This document shows, piece by piece, positions 26,483 through 59,892 of a stretch of 64,000 nt of DNA. The stretch is taken from assembly GCF_907163085.1 (NCBI RefSeq), contig NZ_CAJQTX010000004.1:140956-204955 (forward strand). The letters are read 5' to 3'. The position numbers and the translations under genes were made by a program. The notes under the pieces are model-generated. The model was not told where the DNA came from. It made no database searches and worked only from the letters and a program-made list of their open reading frames with translations. The stretch is from Candidatus Accumulibacter sp. ACC003 (GTDB lineage Bacteria; Pseudomonadota; Gammaproteobacteria; Burkholderiales; Rhodocyclaceae). Every line of letters begins with the position of its first letter. The first letter of the stretch is position 1.

Positions 26483-28390
26483 CACGGTAAATTTGTTCTC
26501 GTGCCGGGATCAAGGTGATACGTGGCCTGTAGAATTTTTGGTCATGCGCAGGTAGTCGAAGACCAATCGGATGTTGCGGTTGAGGTGGCGCATTTTTTCG
26601 GAAATGCTGGTTTTGCCGTCGGAGAAGTGGTGCAGGATTCCGACGGCAAAGCGGCGCAGGCGTGACATGTTCTCGGGTCCGTAACCAGTCCGAATACGGC
26701 TACGGTCCTCGTCGTAGTTCCAGTCGATGACGTAGTGACAGCGGTTCTCTATCGACCAATGGCCGCGATTGATGGCGAGGATTTGCTGTGGGCTGGCCTG
26801 TTCTGGAGGGCGACTGGTGATCCCGAGAGCGATTTCGTGCGTCCGCTTGCCGCTCTTCTTGTGCAGCACTTCGCGCTCGATCAAGAACACCTGGCCGACA
26901 TACGGGAAGTCGAGATAGGCGTTGAGGGCATTGCTGCACCAAATACGCCGAGTCTCGATCCGACCATGGTCAGGTGGCGAAACCGCCACGAAGTCTGCCC
27001 CCTTCCGATCCTGGAAGAGGAGCGCGATATCGGCTTGCAGTGTTGGCTGATTGCCTTTGACCGTGAAGTGATAGTGCGCCTTGCGCTCCACCAGGTAGGT
27101 CGCCAGCTTGCGCTGTGTCAGTAGCGCGTCGGCGGTGATGTCCTTGCCCTGAATATCGATCGCATCGAGCAGGGGTATGAACATCCCGATTTCATTGGTC
27201 TGCTTGAGCTCGTCCCCGCCATTTACGGGCAAGGTGCCGACTTTTTTTGGGTGTGACACACGCCGGTCTGATGCCCGACCACGCTCATGATGTGTGCTTG
27301 CTGACCGTGCTCGTCATGGGCATTGCGCATGGTCTTGCCGTCGACCGCCAGACTGGGGTCGTCTTGAGCATAGGCCTTGTTCCACTGCTGACACGCTTGA
27401 TCGAGCGCCATGGGATCGACACGGATCAGGACGTCACGAATGATGAACTCGCTGGGTACGCGGTAAACGCCCTTCTCGCGACGACAGCGGAAACGCTCGC
27501 GTGCTTTCGGTGTGAGGTCTTTGGCCCACCCGGCGATGGCTTTGTAGCCCCGCATTCCGCACAAGACCGCCGCCGTGGCGATGGCCAGAACGGCAGGAAG
27601 GGGGTGACGCCTTCCTTGCGCGCGCCGCGGGTCGGCGATGCCGGCAAAGAAATCGGGAAGCGTGCGCATCTGTTCGGCGGTGAGCATCATCCTGGGCGCT
27701 CCTGTGCGATAGCGGGGGTTGAGTATCGAGCGGGAAAGTTGGCCGCGAGCGTCCGCCTGCAAGGGGCGAACAAAGACAACTTTGGGCGACGTCGGGTGGG
27801 CGCTGTAGCCTTCTCGGGTGCGGCGAAAGCCTTGCGTCAGCCCCAGAGGCGTCCAGTTCGCGGCGCGATAGACGGTCCCCTGGAAGCGCGAGGGGTCCAC
27901 AAAGGTCTCCAGCAGTAACAGCGGCTTCCCGAAATGCGCCTGCCAATCCTCGGCGACCCGTCGCTCGCACAGCGAGAGCACCTTGGAGCCGAGATTGGGG
28001 TAATGCCAATCGGGAAGGATCAGAAAGCGACTGTTGTTGGCGACCAGGCCCAAGCGATCGTACTGATGCCGATAGTCCCAGCCGATCCAGCGGTCACGAA
28101 CGCCGCATTTCCAGGCCGCCGCAGAGAAACTCAGCAGGGCCGTCCACTTTTCGCCGTAGGTGGCCACGTACCAAAGCGTGTGCCCGATCTTCGCCAGGTC
28201 GCCCAGGTAGTGATGCTCTGCCATCAACTCCCGATAGCGAGCCTCTTCGCTCTTGCCCACCAAGCGAACACGCAATGCACCAAGAACGCTTTCCATGCGC
28301 CATTTATACGGACTTCCGGCGCAGATGTCCAGGGGGAAGAACTAACTGCTTGATTGCCCGTGCGTTGCCTGAGAGGACAAATCCACCCTG
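26483..28390 (-). mobile_element. ISAs1-family IS with DUF4338 domain, copy A (1908 bp)
   Basis: Imperfect IRs CAGGGTGGATTTGTCCTC / CACGGTAAATTTGTTCTC; 10-bp TSD CGTGGGCAGT (26473-26482, 28391-28400). Confidence 0.95.
26510..28296 (-). CDS. DUF4338-ISAs1 transposase fusion (two ORFs joined by predicted -1 frameshift, about 595 aa)
   Basis: ORF1 27223-28296 (DUF4338, DPR..QGRRH.L..VL, AVDGKT); ORF2 26510-27259 (NEI...PLLD..D, ITADALLTQ, HGRIETR, R.HW.IEN..H...D..Y.ED..R.R); A-AAA-AAG at 27247-27241. Confidence 0.85.
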
Positions 28391-28901: not shown

Positions 28902-30809
28902 CACGGTAAATTTGTTCTCGTGCCGGGATCAAGGTGATACGTGGCCTGTAGAATTTTTGGTCATGCGCAGGTAGTCGAAGACCAATCGGATGTTGCGGTT
29001 GAGGTGGCGCATTTTTTCGGAAATGCTGGTTTTGCCGTCGGAGAAGTGGTGCAGGATTCCGACGGCAAAGCGGCGCAGGCGTGACATGTTCTCGGGTCCG
29101 TAACCAGTCCGAATACGGCTACGGTCCTCGTCGTAGTTCCAGTCGATGACGTAGTGACAGCGGTTCTCTATCGACCAATGGCCGCGATTGATGGCGAGGA
29201 TTTGCTGTGGGCTGGCCTGTTCTGGAGGGCGACTGGTGATCCCGAGAGCGATTTCGTGCGTCCGCTTGCCGCTCTTCTTGTGCAGCACTTCGCGCTCGAT
29301 CAAGAACACCTGGCCGACATACGGGAAGTCGAGATAGGCGTTGAGGGCATTGCTGCACCAAATACGCCGAGTCTCGATCCGACCATGGTCAGGTGGCGAA
29401 ACCGCCACGAAGTCTGCCCCCTTCCGATCCTGGAAGAGGAGCGCGATATCGGCTTGCAGTGTTGGCTGATTGCCTTTGACCGTGAAGTGATAGTGCGCCT
29501 TGCGCTCCACCAGGTAGGTCGCCAGCTTGCGCTGTGTCAGTAGCGCGTCGGCGGTGATGTCCTTGCCCTGAATATCGATCGCATCGAGCAGGGGTATGAA
29601 CATCCCGATTTCATTGGTCTGCTTGAGCTCGTCCCCGCCATTTACGGGCAAGGTGCCGACTTTTTTTGGGTGTGACACACGCCGGTCTGATGCCCGACCA
29701 CGCTCATGATGTGTGCTTGCTGACCGTGCTCGTCATGGGCATTGCGCATGGTCTTGCCGTCGACCGCCAGACTGGGGTCGTCTTGAGCATAGGCCTTGTT
29801 CCACTGCTGACACGCTTGATCGAGCGCCATGGGATCGACACGGATCAGGACGTCACGAATGATGAACTCGCTGGGTACGCGGTAAACGCCCTTCTCGCGA
29901 CGACAGCGGAAACGCTCGCGTGCTTTCGGTGTGAGGTCTTTGGCCCACCCGGCGATGGCTTTGTAGCCCCGCATTCCGCACAAGACCGCCGCCGTGGCGA
30001 TGGCCAGAACGGCAGGAAGGGGGTGACGCCTTCCTTGCGCGCGCCGCGGGTCGGCGATGCCGGCAAAGAAATCGGGAAGCGTGCGCATCTGTTCGGCGGT
30101 GAGCATCATCCTGGGCGCTCCTGTGCGATAGCGGGGGTTGAGTATCGAGCGGGAAAGTTGGCCGCGAGCGTCCGCCTGCAAGGGGCGAACAAAGACAACT
30201 TTGGGCGACGTCGGGTGGGCGCTGTAGCCTTCTCGGGTGCGGCGAAAGCCTTGCGTCAGCCCCAGAGGCGTCCAGTTCGCGGCGCGATAGACGGTCCCCT
30301 GGAAGCGCGAGGGGTCCACAAAGGTCTCCAGCAGTAACAGCGGCTTCCCGAAATGCGCCTGCCAATCCTCGGCGACCCGTCGCTCGCACAGCGAGAGCAC
30401 CTTGGAGCCGAGATTGGGGTAATGCCAATCGGGAAGGATCAGAAAGCGACTGTTGTTGGCGACCAGGCCCAAGCGATCGTACTGATGCCGATAGTCCCAG
30501 CCGATCCAGCGGTCACGAACGCCGCATTTCCAGGCCGCCGCAGAGAAACTCAGCAGGGCCGTCCACTTTTCGCCGTAGGTGGCCACGTACCAAAGCGTGT
30601 GCCCGATCTTCGCCAGGTCGCCCAGGTAGTGATGCTCTGCCATCAACTCCCGATAGCGAGCCTCTTCGCTCTTGCCCACCAAGCGAACACGCAATGCACC
30701 AAGAACGCTTTCCATGCGCCATTTATACGGACTTCCGGCGCAGATGTCCAGGGGGAAGAACTAACTGCTTGATTGCCCGTGCGTTGCCTGAGAGGACAAA
30801 TCCACCCTG
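28902..30809 (-). mobile_element. ISAs1-family IS with DUF4338 domain, copy B (1908 bp)
   Basis: Same sequence and ORFs as copy A (28929-29678, 29642-30715); flanks ATCGCTGCCT / ATCGCTGCGT (9 of 10 match). Confidence 0.95.
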
Positions 30810-43261: not shown

Positions 43262-46200
43262 CACGGTAAATTTGTTCTCGTGCCGGGATCAAGGTGATAC
43301 GTGGCCTGTAGAATTTTTGGTCATGCGCAGGTAGTCGAAGACCAATCGGATGTTGCGGTTGAGGTGGCGCATTTTTTCGGAAATGCTGGTTTTGCCGTCG
43401 GAGAAGTGGTGCAGGATTCCGACGGCAAAGCGGCGCAGGCGTGACATGTTCTCGGGTCCGTAACCAGTCCGAATACGGCTACGGTCCTCGTCGTAGTTCC
43501 AGTCGATGACGTAGTGACAGCGGTTCTCTATCGACCAATGGCCGCGATTGATGGCGAGGATTTGCTGTGGGCTGGCCTGTTCTGGAGGGCGACTGGTGAT
43601 CCCGAGAGCGATTTCGTGCGTCCGCTTGCCGCTCTTCTTGTGCAGCACTTCGCGCTCGATCAAGAACACCTGGCCGACATGCGGGAAGTCGAGATAGGCG
43701 TTGAGGGCATTGCTGCACCAAATACGCCGAGTCTCGATCCGACCATGGTCAGGTGGCGAAACCGCCATGAAGTCTGCCCCCTTCCGATCCTGGAAGAGGA
43801 GCGCGATATCGGCTTGCAGTGTTGGCTGATTGCCTTTGACCGTGAAGTGATAGTGCGCCTTGCGCTCCACCAGGTAGGTCGCCAGCTTGCGCTGTGTCAG
43901 TAGCGCGTCGGCGGTGATGTCCTTGCCCTGAATATCGATCGCATCGAGCAGGGGTATGAACATCCCGATTTCATTGGTCTGCTTGAGCTCGTCCCCGCCA
44001 TTTACGGGCAAGGTGCCGACTTTTTTTGGGTGTGGCACACGCCGGTCTGATGCCCGACCACACTCATGATGTGCGTTTGCTGACCGTGCTCGTCATGGGC
44101 ATTGCGCATGGTCTTGCCGTCGACCGCCAGACTGGGGTCGTCTTGAGCATAGGCCTTGTTCCACTGCTGACACGCTTGGTCGAGTGCCGTGGGATCGACG
44201 CGGATCAGGACGTCACGAATGATGAACTCGCTGGGTACGCGGTAAACGCCCTTCTCGCGACGACAGCGGAAACGCTCGCGTGCTTTCGGTGTGAGGTCTT
44301 TGGCCCACCCGGCGATGGCTTTGTAGCCCTGCATTCCGCACAACGCCGCCGCCGTGGCGATGGCCAGCACGGCCGGCAGGGGATGGCGTCTTCCTTCAGA
44401 TTTCCTGATCTCGGAGGAAACCGGGTTGGCACTTCAGACAAGAGTGAAGGTCATTCTTGCCCCGGTTTCCGGATGCGGAAAATCTTGCAGGGTGAGTTTC
44501 TCGAGGAGCGCGGCGATAGCGCGATCATGAGCTGGGCTGGCCATCCGGTGAATTTTGATGGTCAGGGTGTTGGCTAGCGCGTTCGGTTCGATGTCAGCGG
44601 AAGAAACGAACAATTCGCGAATGAGCGCACGTGCGTCGTCCTCCTTCTTCAAGTGGCGGCGCAATAGCGCCACCATGGCGGTCTCGGCCCGGTAGGCGAC
44701 CATTTTCACGGTATCGCAGAGCATCTTGTTCAGCGGCGGCAGTTGGGTCGGTCGCTCGGCCTCGGGCAGACTGTCGATCGTCACCTTTCGGGGGCTTGCC
44801 TTGCGCGCCGCGCAAAGTCGCTTGAGCTCCTCCTGAACGGCCTGCAGTGCTTCGACAGACTCGGCGTTTTTCTGGATTTCGCCGCCGTCGTTCAAGGCCG
44901 TCCTGGCGATTGCGGCCTGCAGTTTTCTTTCGCTCTGGCGGGTTTGCCTGACGGCCTTGTCGAGTTCCCGCCAGCGGGGGTTAACGACCTGGTGAGTGCC
45001 GGGAAGAGATTCGTCTCCGTACTCGATAAGCCCATCAATATCATAATGTTCCATCATGTACGCGAAGTAGTTTTCCTGGCACCAACGGGCGAACATCCGC
45101 CCAGCGATGGTGGTGTTTCCGAGTTGCCGGGCGGTCGTGATCACGGCTGTTTGATGTCCCGTCTGGGTCAGCCGACGAACTTCGCTCACGGCCAGGCTGC
45201 CATCGCCTGTGCCGAGTCGGGTTTCGCGCATGGCGAGTTTCATCCCGGTGCTGCCGCCTGCCGGCAGATGGACTTCCTGTTCCTGAAACACCTCTTCGGA
45301 CCAGAGGTCCTTGACGTTCTTGCGGTAGGTCAGTGCGCCGATGCGCTGTTTCCAGAGTCTGCCGAGGAGACTCTGGGTGGCCCCTTCCCGATCGAAGACC
45401 ATGACAAACCGGTGCAGGGTCGGGTCGGCGTCCAGTTCGGCCGGCGTCGGCTGTCCCGGGACAATCTCCAGCAGTTGGGGGACGATGTCCTTGAGCAGGG
45501 TCTCGGCGAGTCCGTCATTGAGCGGCTGCGAAACCACAAAGAACGGGCGACCCAGGGCATCGTTAACCCAGTAGTCGGTGGTGCCCCGCAGGCACAGGCG
45601 TTCGCGCGAGACGTAGCGCTTCGACAGCCTGGCCTGCTCGCCGTGATACACCCGAACATGACCATCGACATACAGGTAACCCGCTTCTTCTGGCTCGCTT
45701 TCCATCCAGAGCTTCGCGAGATCCCGCATCCAGGCTGCCGGGTCACCCGTCTTGGCCAGCAGATGGACCTTTTCCCGCAGGGTGCGGACTTCCGGTACCC
45801 GGTCCAGGCCGATGACTTTGCCGAGTTCTCCGGGCGAGGTTTGTCGCAGATGTTCCGGCCGCTTGATTCGCCCCAGGGCCATGAAGCCGAGGACGAGAAG
45901 GATGTGCAAGGCGCTGTAGAATCCCCGGGGCAGCTTGAGATGGCGATCCAGGCCGGTCAGTAGCCCGTTCGCGCACAAGGCCGGCAAGCCGGCCAACAGC
46001 CCCCCCATCGCCACATCGTGGCTCGCTTCGAAGCGCGTCGTCGCACCGGTCGCCAATCCCAGCGCCGTTTGGATCCGCTCGTCGGCGCGCGTGCAGGCGG
46101 TGCCCATCCCCGCGGCGGCTTCCGCATCCGCCCGGCTGCGCTCACTCTTGGTGCTCGCCGCTTCCAATTCCCCTGCCTCTTGCGGCAAGGCGGCCAACTG

Positions 46201-47550
46201 CGGCACGCCCTGGCGCCGGATCGCCTTGCGCAGCGTCGACTCCTGGACGCCCACCTGCCGTGCCACTTCGGCAGGACGCTTTCCCTCGCTCAACAGCCGC
46301 GCGCATTCGGCACTCTTGTCCGGCGTCATGATCCGCGGCCGGCTCGCCGCCGCCGGTCGAAAGAAAGACGATGGCCCGGCTTTGCGGCTTTGTCCCACCC
46401 AGTTCATCAGCGTGCGGTGCGGGATGCACAGCGGTGGCCTTTCCAGTTCGACCGCCTTGACGTGCCCGTTCTCCATCAGGCTGGTCAGAGCGAACCTGCG
46501 GCCAGCGTCGTCTCCTACGGGGTGCGAGAAGTAATTGTCTCCCCCAACAAAGTAGATCGCTTGGCCATCCTTCTCCAGAATCGCCAACCCTTCTCCCACT
46601 TTCTGCGCACCATCCGGAAACCCTGGAAGCCACGATTGCCTCAACGTCTGCTCCTCCTTGCACTCCTAGCGAAGCTTGGTTTATGCCATAAGAAAATCAT
46701 GGCCGTCAAAATAAAGTGCCACGTGCAATTCCGGAATTCTACCTACATTCCCGGCCGGGATCAGGAAATCTGTCCTTGCGCGCGCCGCGGGTCGGCGATG
46801 CCGGTAAAGAAATCGGGAAGCGTGCGCATCTGTTCGGCGGTGAGCATCATCCTGGGCGCTCCTGTGCGATAGCGGGGGTTGAGTATCGAGCGGGAAAGTT
46901 GGCCGCGAGCGTCCGCCTGCAAGGGGCGAACAAAGACAACTTTGGGCGACGTCGGGTGGGCGCTGTAGCCTTCTCGGGTGCGGCGAAAGCCTTGCGTCAG
47001 CCCCAGAGGCGTCCAGTTCGCGGCGCGATAGACGGTCCCCTGGAAGCGCGAGGGGTCCACAAAGGTCTCCAGCAGTAACAGCGGCTTCCCGAAATGCGCC
47101 TGCCAATCCTCGGCGACCCGTCGCTCGCACAGCGAGAGCACCTTGGAGCCGAGATTGGGGTAATGCCAATCGGGAAGGATCAGAAAGCGACTGTTGTTGG
47201 CGACCAGGCCCAAGCGATCGTACTGATGCCGATAGTCCCAGCCGATCCAGCGGTCACGAACGCCGCATTTCCAGGCCGCCGCAGAGAAACTCAGCAGGGC
47301 CGTCCACTTTTCGCCGTAGGTGGCCACGTACCAAAGCGTGTGCCCGATCTTCGCAAGGTCGCCCAGGTAGTGATGCTCTGCCATCAACTCCCGATAGCGA
47401 GCCTCTTCGCTCTTGCCCACCAAGCGAACACGCAATGCACCAAGAACGCTTTCCATGCGCCATTTATACGGACTTCCGGCGCAGATGTCCAGGGGGAAGA
47501 ACTAACTGCTTGATTGCCCGTGCGTTGCCTGAGAGGACAAATCCACCCTG
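43262..47550 (-). mobile_element. ISAs1-DUF4338 IS, copy C, interrupted by the 2376-bp IS
   Basis: 10-bp TSD AGCCATTCGC (43252-43261, 47551-47560); 4289 bp = 1908 + 2376 + 5. Confidence 0.95.
44397..46772 (-). mobile_element. 2376-bp IS, copy 3, nested in ISAs1 copy C (transposase 44434-46644)
   Basis: Same IR; 5-bp TSD TCCTT (44392-44396, 46773-46777). Confidence 0.95.
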
Positions 47551-54190: not shown

Positions 54191-56377
54191 ATGTTCTTGA
54201 CGATCGTCTTGCTGCTCATCGGGCTCTGCCTGGCGGGAATTGCCGTGCTGGTCAGCGTTCGGCCGTGGCGGCGCGAACTGATCAGTCGCCGCATTTTCGC
54301 CACCTACAAGCGAATTCTGCCGCAGATGTCTGATACCGAGCGTGAAGCGCTCGAGGCCGGCACGGTGTGGTGGGACGGCGAACTGTTCCGCGGCAACCCC
54401 GACTGGAGCAAGCTGTTGGCGTATCCGGTCCCCAAATTGAGCGCCGAAGAGCAGTCTTTCATGGACCACGAGGTCGAACACGCGTGTGCGCTGGTTGACG
54501 ACTGGCAGGTCACCAGCGAATTGTACGATCTACCACCCGAGGCCTGGCGCTACATCAAGGACAAGGGTTTTCTCGGGATGATCATTCCGAAGCGCTACGG
54601 CGGGCTGGAGTTCTCCGCTTTCGCGCATTCGCAGGTGGTCACCAAGCTGTCGACGCGTTGCTCGGCGCTGTCGGTATCGGTGATGGTTCCGAACTCGCTC
54701 GGCCCCGCCGAACTGTTGTTGCACTATGGTACCGAGGCGCAGAAAGAGCATTACCTGCCGCGCCTGGCCAGGGGCATCGAGGTGCCGGCCTTCGCGCTGA
54801 CCAGTCCGTGGGCAGGTTCCGATGCCGGTTCGATACCCGACGTCGGGATCGTCTGCAAAGGGATTTGGCACGGTAAGGAAGTTGTCGGCATGCGGGTGAC
54901 CTGGGACAAGCGCTACATCACGCTCGGCCCGGTGTGCACCATCCTCGGTCTGGCTTTTCACATGTACGACCCGGACGGCCTGCTCGGCAGCAAGAAGCAT
55001 CTTGGCATCACCTGCGCGCTGGTGCCGCGCGACACGCCTGGCGCCGACATCGGTCGCCGGCACGTGCCGCTGAACGCGATGTTCATGAATGGTCCGACCC
55101 GCGGCCAGGACGTATTCATGCCTTTGGACTACGTGATCGGCGGTCCGGCGATGGTCGGTCAGGGCTGGCGGATGCTGATGGAGTGTCTGGCGGCGGGTCG
55201 CTCGATCTCGCTGCCCTCGTCGAATGCCGGCATGGCGCAATTGACCGCACGCACCGTTGGTGGCTACGCGCGCGTGCGCAGCCAGTTCAAGATGGCGATC
55301 GGGCGCTTCGAAGGAGTCGAGGAACCGCTGACACGGATCGGCGCCTACACCTACATGATGAACGCCGTACGCACGATGACTGCCGGTGCCATCGATCTCG
55401 GCGAAAAGCCATCGGTGGTTTCGGCGATCGCCAAATACCACGTCACCGAGCTTGCCCGGCAGGTGGTCAATGACGGCATGGACATCGTCGGCGGCAAGGG
55501 GATTTGCCTTGGCCCGTCGAATTTCATCGGCCGCGCCTATCAGCAGCTACCGATCGGCATTACCGTCGAAGGAGCCAACATCTTGACGCGCAGCATGATC
55601 CTCTTCGGGCAGGGCGCCATTCGCTGCCATCCGTACGTGTTGAAGGAAATGCAATCGGCCTACGATGCCGACGCCGAACGCGGCCTTAATGATTTCGACG
55701 AGGCCTTTTTTGGGCACGCGGCTTACACCATCAAGCACGGTTTCGGTGCCTTCGCCAAGGGGCTCACCGGTTCGCATTTCGTCTCGGCACCCGACAACGT
55801 GGCGCCTGAAACGCGGCGTTACTATCAGCAACTGACGCGCTTTTCGTCGGCTTTCGCTTTCCTCGCCGACATTTCCATGCTGACGCTGGGTGGCGAACTG
55901 AAACGTCGCGAAAAGCTCTCGGCGCGCCTGGGCGACATCCTGTCGATGCTCTATCTGTGCTCGGCGACGCTCAAGCGTTACGAGTCGGAAGGGCGTCAGC
56001 AGGCCGATGCGCCGCTGATGCACTGGGCGATGTGGGATACCATGTACAAGGCGCAGATGGCTTTCGACGGCGTCATCGCCAATTTCCCGGTGCGCTGGAT
56101 CGGGCGTCTGCTCTACCGAATCGTTTTCCCACTCGGCCACCCTTACGACGTTCCCTCGGACCGCATCGGCCATCAGGTCGCCAAGCTGCTGATCGAGCCG
56201 TCGGCTGCGCGTGACCGTTTGACTGCCGAAACCTACCTGCCAAAAGTCGCCAGCGAGGCCGTCGGTGCGGTCGAACTGGCGCTGCTGGCGACGATCGCCG
56301 CCGAGCCGATCGAAGCCAGGCTTCGCGCGGCGGAGAAAAGTGGTGCGCTTGCCGATAATCCGCAAGCCAACGTCCGC
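54191..56377 (+). pseudogene. fadE: FadE-type acyl-CoA dehydrogenase, 3' end replaced by anomalous DNA
   Basis: EALEAGTVWWDGELF, VMVPNSLGP.ELL, FALT.P.AGSDAG, KRYITL.P, EGANILTR; family similarity stops at NPQANVR and read-through to 56476 is not protein-like. Confidence 0.85.
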
Positions 56378-57140
56378 CTATCCTCTAGCCACTGCACTTT
56401 ACGCGGCTTTCATCGCCTGCCAGTGATCGTCTCACCGTCCGGCCGATTACCGCGGTGCCGCCCCAAGCGGCGGTAATGAGTTGCTGCTGTACTCTCATTA
56501 TCGTTTCGACAGATTTTCCCCTACCTACCTGGGGCGCGCACACGCAACAAGCGCTGGTCTCCACAAAGCGAGGCCGCGTAGATTCGCCCGCCTGGCAAGC
56601 GAGCCCAGGGACCGGCCATCGCTCGGGTTCCCGTTTGCCAGCCCATTGCCCCCGGGTGGGCTGCACTAGGGAGTCAACTTTATTCCCATCATATACCTAG
56701 AGAATGTGTACATGTAAAGGATACTTCAAGTGGTATTCCCAACCTGTTCGTACTTCGTCTTACTTTTGGTCAGCCAAGGAGCTATCCGCCCCGTTTCCGA
56801 GAGCGGACTTCTTTGCGGTGTCCGCCTGGTCGCGGTCTTCCTTGACCTGACTAAGTTGATTATCTTGGTTGTCTGGCGCTGTTACAGGTGCTTATGGCGC
56901 CTGCTCTTGTTCGCGGCTAGGATCACCCATGTTCCGGGCGTGCAGTCAACTGGTGGCTTGCGGGCAAGTTGTGCTTCATGCGCTGTCGCCATGCGCCCGC
57001 TCGCATGTTACTCGTAGTCGTATGGTGCGGACTGGTTGCTCACAGGACCATCGCCAGAACGCTATCAGCCGTCGTCCCTTTTTGCCGAGGAGCTGCGTCG
57101 CGTTGCAACTTGCATGCTGGGTTCCACCCGGTTTTAAATT
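56378..57140. other. About 760-bp anomalous non-coding segment
   Basis: No credible ORF, AT-rich core, four CTAG (56385, 56666, 56697, 56917), no IR or TSD; breaks two genes. Confidence 0.8.
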
Positions 57141-57943
57141 TCGGCTTGCTGAAAGGGCTGACCGATCCGAATATCGGGCTGCTGATGGGGCAGACCGCTG
57201 AAAACATCGCCTGGCGCTTCGGCATTACGCGGCACGACATGGATCAGTTCAGCGTCGCTAGCCACCAGCGTGCCGTCGCCGCGCGTGCTGGCGGCCGGCT
57301 CGACGAGATCGTGCCGCTGGTCGATGCGCAGGGCAAGGTCTATGGCCAAGACGACGGCGTGCGCGCCGATTCGAGCGTCGCCGGGCTGAGCAAGCTGAAA
57401 CCTTTTTTCGACCGCCGCTACGGTCGCGTGACGCCGGGCAACAGCTCGCAGATCAGCGACGGTGCGGCCTGGCTGATCCTGGCTTCCGAGGCGGCAGTCG
57501 AGAGATGGCAGCTACAAGCTCTGGGCAAGATCACCGATAGCCAGTGGGCCGGCCTCGACCCGGCGCAGATGGGCCTTGGCCCGGTGCACGCGGCGACGCC
57601 GATACTCCTGCGCCATGGGCTCGGGCTCGACGATATCGACCTCTGGGAGATCAACGAGGCCTTCGCTGCGCAGGTCCTTGGCTGCCTCGCGGCCTGGGAG
57701 TCGGACGCCTACTGCCGTGAACAGCTGGCTCTGCCGGCCGCGCTGGGTGTCCTGCCGCGGGCGCGTCTCAACGTCGACGGCGGCGCGGTGGCCGTCGGTC
57801 ACCCGGTCGGTGCGTCGGGCGCGCGCATCGTTCTACACCTGCTGCACGCCTTGCGCGCCGCCAACGCCAGGCGCGGTATGGCGACGATCTGCATCGGCGG
57901 CGGCCAGGGCGGCGCGATGCTGCTTGAAACGATCGACCGATGA
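57141..57943 (+). pseudogene. 3' half of acetyl-CoA C-acyltransferase (thiolase)
   Basis: GLTDP...LMGQTAE, NSSQISDGA, EINEAFA, GHP.GASG.R, CIGGGQG present; N-terminal half with the nucleophile Cys is absent. Confidence 0.88.
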
Positions 57944-59892
57944 CGGACACAGGAGAAAAACACATGCACAGCGATGCCACCAGCTACGAGCATTGGCAGG
58001 TCGAAGTCGACGCCGCGGGCCTGGTCTGGGTGACGCTCGACAAAGCCGGCGAATCGACCAACTCGCTGTCGAGCGCCGTGCTGAGCGAACTGTCGTTGCT
58101 GCTCGACGGCTTCGACCGCAGTCCGCCACGCGGACTGATCTTCCGTTCCGGGAAGTCGGCCGGATTCATTGCCGGCGCCGATATTCAGGAGTTCACCAGG
58201 CTCGATACGCCGGCCAAAGGCGTCGAGCTGGTCAGGCGTGGCTGGGATCTTTTCAATCGCCTGGCCAGTGTCACGTATCCGACGTTGGCGCTGGTCCGAG
58301 GTCATTGCCTGGGTGGTGGTCTCGAGCTGGCGCTGGCGTGTCGCTACCTGCTGGCCGTCGACGAGCCGGCGACGCGGATGGGCCTACCGGAAGTGATGCT
58401 CGGAATCGTTCCCGGCTGGGGCGGCATGTTGCGCCTGCCGCAACGGATCGGCGCACAGGCGGCGCTGGACATGATGCTCACCGGCAAGAGCGTCGACGCC
58501 AAGCGCGCCAAACGCCTGGGACTGGCTGACGACTGCGTACCGCTGCGCGTGATGGACAACGCCGCCGCCATGCTGCTGCTCGCCGACCAGGCGCGTCGGA
58601 CGCTGTCGCCGCTGCAGCGCCTGCTCAACGGACCCTTGCGCGGTCTGGCGGCGCGGGCGGCGAGAAAGCAGGTCGCCAAGCGCGCGCGCGTCGAGCATTA
58701 TCCGGCACCCTACGCGATCATCGACATCTGGGAAAAGCACCACGGTAACGCGCTGGCCGCACCGGCGCTGATCGACAGCATCGTGCGTTCGCCAACGGCT
58801 CGCAATCTGGTGCGCGTTTTCTTCATGCAGGAGCGCCTCAAGGGTTTCGGCAAGGGCAGTACTTACCAGGCGCAACGCGTTCACGTCGTCGGCGCCGGCG
58901 TCATGGGCGGCGACATCGCCGCCTGGTGCGCGCTGCGTGGGCTGACGGTCACCCTGCAGGATCAAGGGGTCGAATGCATCGCACCGGCGCTGCAGCGCGC
59001 CTATGCGACCTTTCGGCAGCGGATCAAGGAACCGCTCGAACTGCGCAACGCCATGGACCGCCTGATTCCGGACCCCGAAGGGCACGGCGCCAGGAGCGCC
59101 GACGTGGTCATCGAGGCGATCTTCGAGAACCTCGAGGCCAAGCGCGCGCTCCTCCAGCAGCTCGACGCGCTGATCAGGCCCGACGCGGTGTTGGCGACCA
59201 ATACCTCGAGCCTCAGGATTGAGGATTTGCACGGCGTGCTGGCCAATTCGGCGCGCCTGGTCGGCATTCACTTCTTCAACCCGGTGGCCCGCATGCCGCT
59301 GGTCGAAGTGGTCGCCGCGGCCGGCGCCGATCCCGAGATGCTGCAGCGCGCCACGGCCTTCGTCAAACAGATCGACCGTCTGCCGCTGCCGGTGAACAGC
59401 GCGCCGGGTTTCCTGGTCAATGCCGTTCTCGGGCCCTACATGCTGGCCGCCATGCGGGCCGTCGACGAGGGGTTGGCGCCGGCGACCATCGACGCAGCGA
59501 TGCTGGCCTTCGGCATGCCGATGGGGCCGATCGAGCTGGTGGACATGGTCGGGCTCGACGTGGCGATGGCCGCTGGCCGGAGCCTCGCCGGCGACGACGG
59601 CGAGCCGCCGAGCTGTCTGCGCGAACGCTTTGCTGCCGGGCAGCTCGGCAAGAAGACGGGCCAGGGCTTATACGCCTACCGCCAGGGCAAGGCGATCAAG
59701 GGCAAGGCTGGCGCGGTGCCGGCCGGGCTTGCCGAGCGCCTGCTCGAGCCGCTCCTCGAACGCACGCAGCAACTGGTCAGCGACGGCGTCGTCGCCGACG
59801 CCGACCTGGCCGACGCTGGCGTTATTTTCGGCACCGGTTTCGCACCATTTACCGGCGGGCCGCTCAATTATCTACGCAATCGGCACGCCTGA
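57940..59892 (+). CDS. Enoyl-CoA hydratase / 3-hydroxyacyl-CoA dehydrogenase (FadJ-like)
   Basis: FIAGADI, CLGGGLELALAC, LPEV.LG..PGWGG, VGAGVMGGDIA, EAI.E, NTSS, HFFNP. Confidence 0.93.
   Translation: MTDTGEKHMHSDATSYEHWQVEVDAAGLVWVTLDKAGESTNSLSSAVLSELSLLLDGFDRSPPRGLIFRSGKSAGFIAGADIQEFTRLDTPAKGVELVRRGWDLFNRLASVTYPTLALVRGHCLGGGLELALACRYLLAVDEPATRMGLPEVMLGIVPGWGGMLRLPQRIGAQAALDMMLTGKSVDAKRAKRLGLADDCVPLRVMDNAAAMLLLADQARRTLSPLQRLLNGPLRGLAARAARKQVAKRARVEHYPAPYAIIDIWEKHHGNALAAPALIDSIVRSPTARNLVRVFFMQERLKGFGKGSTYQAQRVHVVGAGVMGGDIAAWCALRGLTVTLQDQGVECIAPALQRAYATFRQRIKEPLELRNAMDRLIPDPEGHGARSADVVIEAIFENLEAKRALLQQLDALIRPDAVLATNTSSLRIEDLHGVLANSARLVGIHFFNPVARMPLVEVVAAAGADPEMLQRATAFVKQIDRLPLPVNSAPGFLVNAVLGPYMLAAMRAVDEGLAPATIDAAMLAFGMPMGPIELVDMVGLDVAMAAGRSLAGDDGEPPSCLRERFAAGQLGKKTGQGLYAYRQGKAIKGKAGAVPAGLAERLLEPLLERTQQLVSDGVVADADLADAGVIFGTGFAPFTGGPLNYLRNRHA

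Follow-up and report, generated by a model that had tools for sequence, protein, structure and literature searches.

A 763-bp garbled stretch between fadE and a thiolase gene in a deposited Candidatus Accumulibacter genome is very probably a local assembly error

The 763 bp that interrupt fadE and the adjacent thiolase gene in the deposited metagenome-assembled genome of Candidatus Accumulibacter sp. ACC003 are, with a probability that we put at roughly 0.92, a local sequence error, and both genes are almost certainly intact in the organism. This stretch, hereafter the patch, is present in the public record and missing from independent assemblies; it derives colinearly from the native sequence, and it is noise-like. 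The artefact is demonstrated from the contigs of independent samples, as opposed to the source data. The window (the whole 64,000-nucleotide stretch that was analysed) is part of C4, a contig of 630,420 bp, in a genome comprising 13 contigs and 5.39 Mb that protein hits assign to Candidatus Accumulibacter. A preliminary description, based on the letters of the window, had considered a misassembly or other artefact at least as likely as biology, and this has been borne out: at the site of the patch, the independent assemblies carry native sequence that is in frame.

RESULTS AND DISCUSSION

The fadE-thiolase locus as assembled

The FadE reading frame (54191-56476) clearly belongs to its family (1136 bits), but, as assembled, about 50 C-terminal residues are absent, which we attribute to the artefact. 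The NCBIfam profiles PRK09463 and PRK13026 are matched over positions 1-684 of 726 and 4-723 of 777, respectively, with family similarity ending at around residue 726-730, and Pfam ACDH_C is covered over 1-244 of its 284 positions. Beyond codon 729, there follow 32 residues that bear no relation to FadE and then a stop, giving a product of 761 aa. Given that FadE comprises 782-783 aa in relatives, about 54 aa are absent here, rather than the about 90 aa that had been supposed; the genuine part is 92% identical to 783-aa FadE proteins of Accumulibacter. On the other side of the patch, the thiolase frame is covered by NCBIfam PRK08170 only from position 165 (165-433 of 434), beginning ...GLLKGLTDP, and Pfam Thiolase_N is present only from position 134 of 260; as assembled, the frame does not present an N-terminal domain with the catalytic cysteine. 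Thiolases of Accumulibacter relatives have 429 aa, of which about 162 aa, including the catalytic N-terminal part, are absent here (in agreement with an earlier estimate of about 160 aa), and the remainder is 89% identical to them. The gene halves beside the patch (729 and 267 codons) contain neither stops nor frameshifts. The FadJ/FadB-like gene that follows is recognized by NCBIfam PRK11154 (E 1.6e-132) and by Pfam ECH_1, 3HCDH_N and 3HCDH.

Table 1. Coordinates of the features discussed, in window positions
Feature	Position	Strand	Remarks
fadE (acyl-CoA dehydrogenase), genuine part	54191..56377	+	codons 1-729 of about 783
Garbled patch (763 bp)	56378..57140	+	copy, with many errors, of native fadE 3' end, spacer and thiolase 5' end
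Remnant of last about 50 fadE codons	56401..56582	+	nhmmer, profile 11 to about 165 = patch 24-205
Remnant of the organism's own fadE-thiolase spacer	56589..56640	+	native contig piece and 30-mer alignment
Remnant of thiolase ribosome-binding site and start (AAAGGA..GTGG.ATTCC.CA.CC.GT)	56707..56747	+	end of first nhmmer hit, profile about 235-269
Remnant of thiolase N-terminal domain coding sequence	56943..57059	+	nhmmer and blastn
Last about 47 patch bases, equivalent to 30 native bases	57094..57140	+	loose contig ends, X1 and X3
Acetyl-CoA C-acetyltransferase (thiolase), genuine part	57141..57943	+	about residues 163-429
FadJ/FadB-like enoyl-CoA hydratase / 3-hydroxyacyl-CoA dehydrogenase	57940..59892	+	intact; next operon gene
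ISAs1-type copies A and B	26483-27617 and 28902-30036		

Borders of the patch and its native counterpart

DNA similarity to about 50 relatives (18 same-genus genomes together with metagenome loci) breaks at 56377 and restarts at 57141, within 0-9 bases; both borders are seen in all 18 of the same-genus genomes, and the aligned flanks share 71-89% identity (range across the about 50 relatives). Thus, the loss of FadE similarity after codon 729 and the return of the thiolase at GLLKGLTDP, both noted at the outset, are confirmed by the profiles and by the DNA of the relatives, and the coordinates first assigned to the segment (Table 1) are exact, since relatives and independent contigs break there. 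Between the borders, the relatives have a native piece of 684-866 bp, mostly about 740-757 bp; with 763 bp in the patch, the original phrase 'equal-length substitution' is descriptively right. At those columns with at least 90% agreement among 30 relatives, the window agrees at 97-98% in both flanks, compared with 46% in the patch.

Residual homology inside the patch

The segment had been taken for alien DNA, but this is wrong, as it is colinear with the native fadE end, spacer, thiolase start and thiolase body. A sensitive blastn comparison with the orthologous pieces gave colinear matches: about 180 nt of the fadE end align at 68-69% identity and, in the thiolase part, 104 nt align to L004 at 74%. 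With an nhmmer profile built from the native piece of 30 relatives, positions 11-269 correspond to patch 24-370 (E 1e-11), with correct order and offsets, and positions 576-692 to patch 566-682 (E 9e-4), again colinear. Local alignment scores of the patch against the native pieces are 43-74, versus 25-26 +/- 3 for random genome segments (null maximum 40), and the unit-cost global identity to relatives is 0.585-0.60, versus 0.565 +/- 0.01 for random segments, i.e. 2-3.5 sd above. Relative to the profile, the fadE remnant contains 26 inserted and no deleted bases (nhmmer), and the native fadE stop, TAG, is recognizable at 56579-56581, albeit out of frame. In the middle of the patch, over about 200 bp (roughly 56750-56940), there is no demonstrable homology. 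A protein search of the six frames of the patch with the native FadE C-terminus and thiolase N-terminus found nothing significant, as is to be expected from indel noise.

The patch also harbours an imperfect 19-nt direct repeat (TATTCCCA...) at 56681-56699 and 56734-56752, 53 nt apart; the latter copy aligns to the native thiolase start, and the former may have arisen by stuttering, through a second reading of those native bases. Separately, comparison of the reversed, complemented and reverse-complemented segment with the orthologous pieces revealed no inversion and no data-handling flip.

Composition of the patch and search for a donor

Under a 5th-order Markov model of the genome itself, the log-likelihood of the patch is -1.409 per base, compared with a genome mean of -1.290 +/- 0.041, which places it at the 0.9th percentile of the genome; shuffles of the patch itself give -1.448 +/- 0.014, and the two flanks -1.290 and -1.253. 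The k-mer content is, therefore, close to random for the composition and unshaped by the genome. The tetranucleotide CTAG is avoided in the genome (20 sites in 64 kb), and its four occurrences in the patch compare with 0.24 expected from the rate of the window and, by arithmetic, about 2.7 in random sequence of the same composition. The base composition also departs from that of the orthologous pieces: G is lower (0.27, against 0.35), T is higher (0.27, against 0.18), and A and C are unchanged. Hence, the initial remark that four CTAG sites set the segment apart from the rest of the window holds, with a likelihood in the lowest 0.9% of the genome, and the proposed k-mer comparison with the genome and shuffled controls, when run, put the patch near its own shuffles and in the lowest 1% of the genome.

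Neither terminal inverted repeats nor a target-site duplication mark the patch, and its ORFs do not exceed 110 aa, consistent with what had been read from the sequence initially; it also lacks a transposase and a second copy in the 5.39-Mb genome. Rfam, the plasmid and phage collections and 400 genomes of the order yielded neither a match nor a donor, and the core of the patch has no exact match in the species-representative genome collection. A BLASTN search of the segment had been advised in case it hit a known element with matching ends; none was found, and blastn instead gave the colinear native homology. Two kinds of weak match were set aside as chance: a sub-threshold hit to the Rfam family CRISPR-DR20 (18.7 bits against 42, E 0.75), and two 28-30-nt matches to unrelated genomes of the order (E about 3e-4).

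Contigs from independent metagenomes

A k-mer search of public runs identified 20 holders in 9 studies, all of them metagenomes of wastewater, sludge or bioreactors; no run contains more than 0.51 of the sampled 31-mers of the query, of which the two flanks make up 56%. Logan contigs from four runs (X1-X4), representing four studies, were aligned to the region. Those of X1, X2 and X3 follow the left flank with 0-3 mismatches, break at 56377 and continue with 517-542 unlike bases, whereas similarity in X1-X4 begins exactly at 57141, with 0-1 mismatches, preceded by 233 (X1) and 202 (X3) unlike bases. The flanks of X1 are identical to the window, with 0 mismatches over 211 and 1260 bases. None of the contigs from X1-X4 crosses the patch; the sole exception to the break is a short piece, about 18 nt as judged from the depth ratio, which aligns again with its end at 56606; it comes from the same native contigs in X1, X2 and X3.

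The loose ends of these contigs provide a direct view of the native sequence. In X1 and X3, the last 30 loose bases before 57141 read in frame as RPVQLLSPV and continue to IGLLKGLTDP, the native thiolase reading that relatives also have. When this true 30-mer is aligned to the window, 27 of its 30 bases are kept, with 13 or more extra window bases; for the true 30-mer after 56606, 29 of 30 are kept, with 7 extra window bases and 0 substitutions. Random genome targets scored as high as the true 30-mers in 0 and 2 of 2000 cases (0 for the spacer 30-mer). No full same-strain native sequence emerged when metagenome contigs were scanned for exact patterns; a scan of related loci peaked at relatives with 95% amino-acid identity, and a short-fragment protein search peaked at 88% identity. 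The same-strain true sequence used is thus limited to the two 30-base loose ends and the piece of about 18 nt.

Two further observations arise from these contigs. Across four unrelated wastewater, bioreactor or sludge studies, the fadE, thiolase and fadJ-like contigs show 0-3 mismatches per piece (pieces matched in 55400-58400, of several hundred to 1260 bases each), and so essentially the same strain is widespread. Moreover, contigs from X1 and from X3 terminate at the same distance beyond 56377 (517 bases), so that the graph breaks recurrently in the 5' region of the thiolase gene.

An assembly error versus a real change

The patch displays three properties by which an assembly error is recognized: it is missing from independent assemblies with identical flanks, it is derived colinearly from the native sequence with differences that are dominated by indels, and its k-mers are near-random and unshaped by the genome. 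Judged from the alignments, the pattern is one of insertion-dominated error and not of evolutionary divergence, the patch being the true sequence with many inserted bases and larger losses in the middle. Natural divergence cannot yield such a patch, given that the flanks are identical over >1 kb.

That foreign or scrambled DNA of 763 bp has truly replaced the end of fadE and the start of the thiolase gene, inactivating the operon in this strain, is very improbable. The sequence does stand in the deposited genome, its borders are base-precise and its length is near native; yet X1, with flanks that lack a single mismatch, has native sequence there, and identical flanks leave no time for about 50% divergence and dozens of indels. 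Furthermore, colinearity with the native sequence means that the patch is not foreign; it lacks inverted repeats, a target-site duplication, an ORF and any known element, and no donor emerged from the 400 genomes of the order or from the plasmid and phage collections. The flanking gene halves, without stops or frameshifts, are also unlike those of decaying pseudogenes. We regard as still more remote a very recent and localized error-prone resynthesis of the 763 bp (e.g. by low-fidelity, slippage-prone break repair) that left the flanks untouched. Consequently, the suggestion that the β-oxidation operon is disabled finds no evidence in the organism, where independent contigs are native and in frame.

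The error already resides in the deposited record. In the public protein collection there are two aberrant entries with precomputed Pfam hits: a 761-aa FadE that ends in the 32 aberrant residues, and a truncated thiolase of 277 aa, the latter a gene call made independently of this analysis. Each lies on a contig of 630,420 bp, which is the length of C4; the patch therefore belongs to the deposited assembly and was not added afterwards. An alteration of the segment after deposition, for instance a control planted on purpose or an edit made in handling the genome copy, is accordingly most unlikely. It was raised in the preliminary description as an artificial edit, and the near-native length and exact borders would suit it; the genome copy and the window do not differ, which speaks neither for nor against it. 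However, not only are both products in the public collection, with the last 32 residues of FadE translated from the patch, but the differences from the native sequence are insertion-biased and patchy, and not uniform.

Likely cause of the error

Most likely, the patch would be a stretch of one low-quality long read, introduced as draft sequence or gap-fill; later polishing would have failed because accurate reads no longer align to so garbled a stretch. Long reads were probably used in the assembly, as three 100%-identical copies of a 2.4-kb IS element are resolved in the window, and the break of the short-read graphs 517 bases past 56377 in X1 and X3 makes a gap there plausible in a short-read assembly. 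An insertion bias would fit raw single-molecule reads; for raw long reads, an error of 13-15% per base is usually quoted. Several features sit less comfortably with an assembly error: the patch is noisier than a typical raw long read (identity 0.585-0.60), about 200 bp in its middle have no demonstrable homology, and no second patch of the same kind was found. Near-equal length is also odd for insertion-dominated noise, and requires compensating deletions in the middle of the patch.

A less likely, though not negligible, origin is a garbled consensus of co-occurring Accumulibacter strains or species, or of thiolase paralogues, that zig-zags between them and gains bases. The short-read graphs of X1 and X3 break at the same native position, which makes the region a recurrent branch point, and the imperfect 19-nt duplicate of the thiolase-start motif is such as a stuttering consensus might give. 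Microdiversity is, moreover, known to disturb Accumulibacter assemblies (PMC9311429, summary), an effect that would favour a mixed consensus here. Against this, a consensus of real sequences should keep mostly real k-mers, whereas the likelihood of the patch is close to that of its shuffles; relatives match the patch at about 60% at most, and parts of it have no homology at all.

The remainder of the genome

Screens based on GC3 and on 3-periodicity were far too unspecific to reveal further patches (847 and 1162 hits, respectively). A screen of ORF-free gaps with low Markov likelihood yielded 54 candidates, with the patch among the most extreme. Six of these were compared with five relatives, and none of the six shows the patch signature: three belong to accessory regions where synteny is slight or absent, and at the other three the alignments of relatives run naturally through the gap or beside it. 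These six atypical ORF-free regions are natural. Across about 250 kb aligned to a relative's 291-kb contig, no equal-length break of about 700 bp or more occurs other than the patch; for five other equal-gap candidates, from the comparison with G001, ORF maps are uninterpretable at this G+C content. Overall, the assembly seems accurate elsewhere, with the patch as a rare event and not a sign of a pervasive problem.

A number of side observations concern other parts of the genome. Copy C of the ISAs1-type element (43262-44396) differs from the identical copies A and B (Table 1) by 19 substitutions and no gaps in 1135 nt (98.3%), and its 3' part (46773-47550) by 2 differences in 778; this is ordinary divergence and not patch-like noise. 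Within L112, a unit of about 140 nt (L112:315-455; G000 contig C2, about 558,114-558,254) matches the relative G001 on both strands, in >50 places and at 71-98% identity, and also a few places in G018 and G014; a second unit (L112:1632-1766) is found on several contigs at 85-92%; both look like MITE- or REP-like dispersed repeats of Accumulibacter. Finally, L110 (G000 C2:3100-6000) contains a gap of 490 bp (C2:4338-4828) that is free of ORFs of 150 codons or more and has atypical k-mers; four of five relatives align end to end with the surrounding region at 74-75%, and the gap may be a conserved non-coding or RNA-coding stretch.

Implications for use of the genome

In this species-representative genome, the garbled 763 bp make two β-oxidation genes look truncated, and it would be wrong to read the locus as a loss of β-oxidation in this Accumulibacter species. 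The consequences extend to the public protein collections, which contain the derived FadE with its 32-residue nonsense tail and the 277-aa thiolase fragment. The stretch deserves to be flagged as an assembly error and is of low biological interest. The signs by which such a patch may be recognized are a loss of similarity that is base-precise in all relatives and leaves the length nearly equal, colinear remnants with an insertion bias, near-random k-mers and independent contigs that diverge exactly at the borders.

Comparison with known systems

Superficially, the locus resembles the insertion of an IS or MITE with an adjacent deletion, in that two neighbouring genes are truncated with unrelated-looking DNA between them, and the window does hold several active IS elements. 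The patch differs in lacking terminal inverted repeats, a target-site duplication, a transposase and any other genomic copy, and in being colinear with the native sequence; it does not belong among mobile-element insertions. It shares with pseudogene decay the stops and frameshifts that break both reading frames, but here the damage is limited to 763 bp with base-precise borders, the rest of the two genes (729 and 267 codons) is undamaged, with 89-92% identity to functional relatives, and the flanks are identical to those of samples with the native version.

The closest parallel is provided by Accumulibacter metagenomes in which the junctions that hybrid metaSPAdes assembly took from long reads were error-rich because they went unpolished (Adler et al. 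2022, PMC9311429, section 16). The patch departs from these junctions in that its noise exceeds 13-15% per base, with parts that are unrecognizable, and in that a single example was found in the scanned part of the genome. Otherwise, the resemblance is extensive: like them, the patch is a short, very inaccurate stretch between accurate flanks, its errors are indel-rich and frame-breaking, it is missing from short-read-derived contigs of the same organism, and it sits where short-read graphs break.
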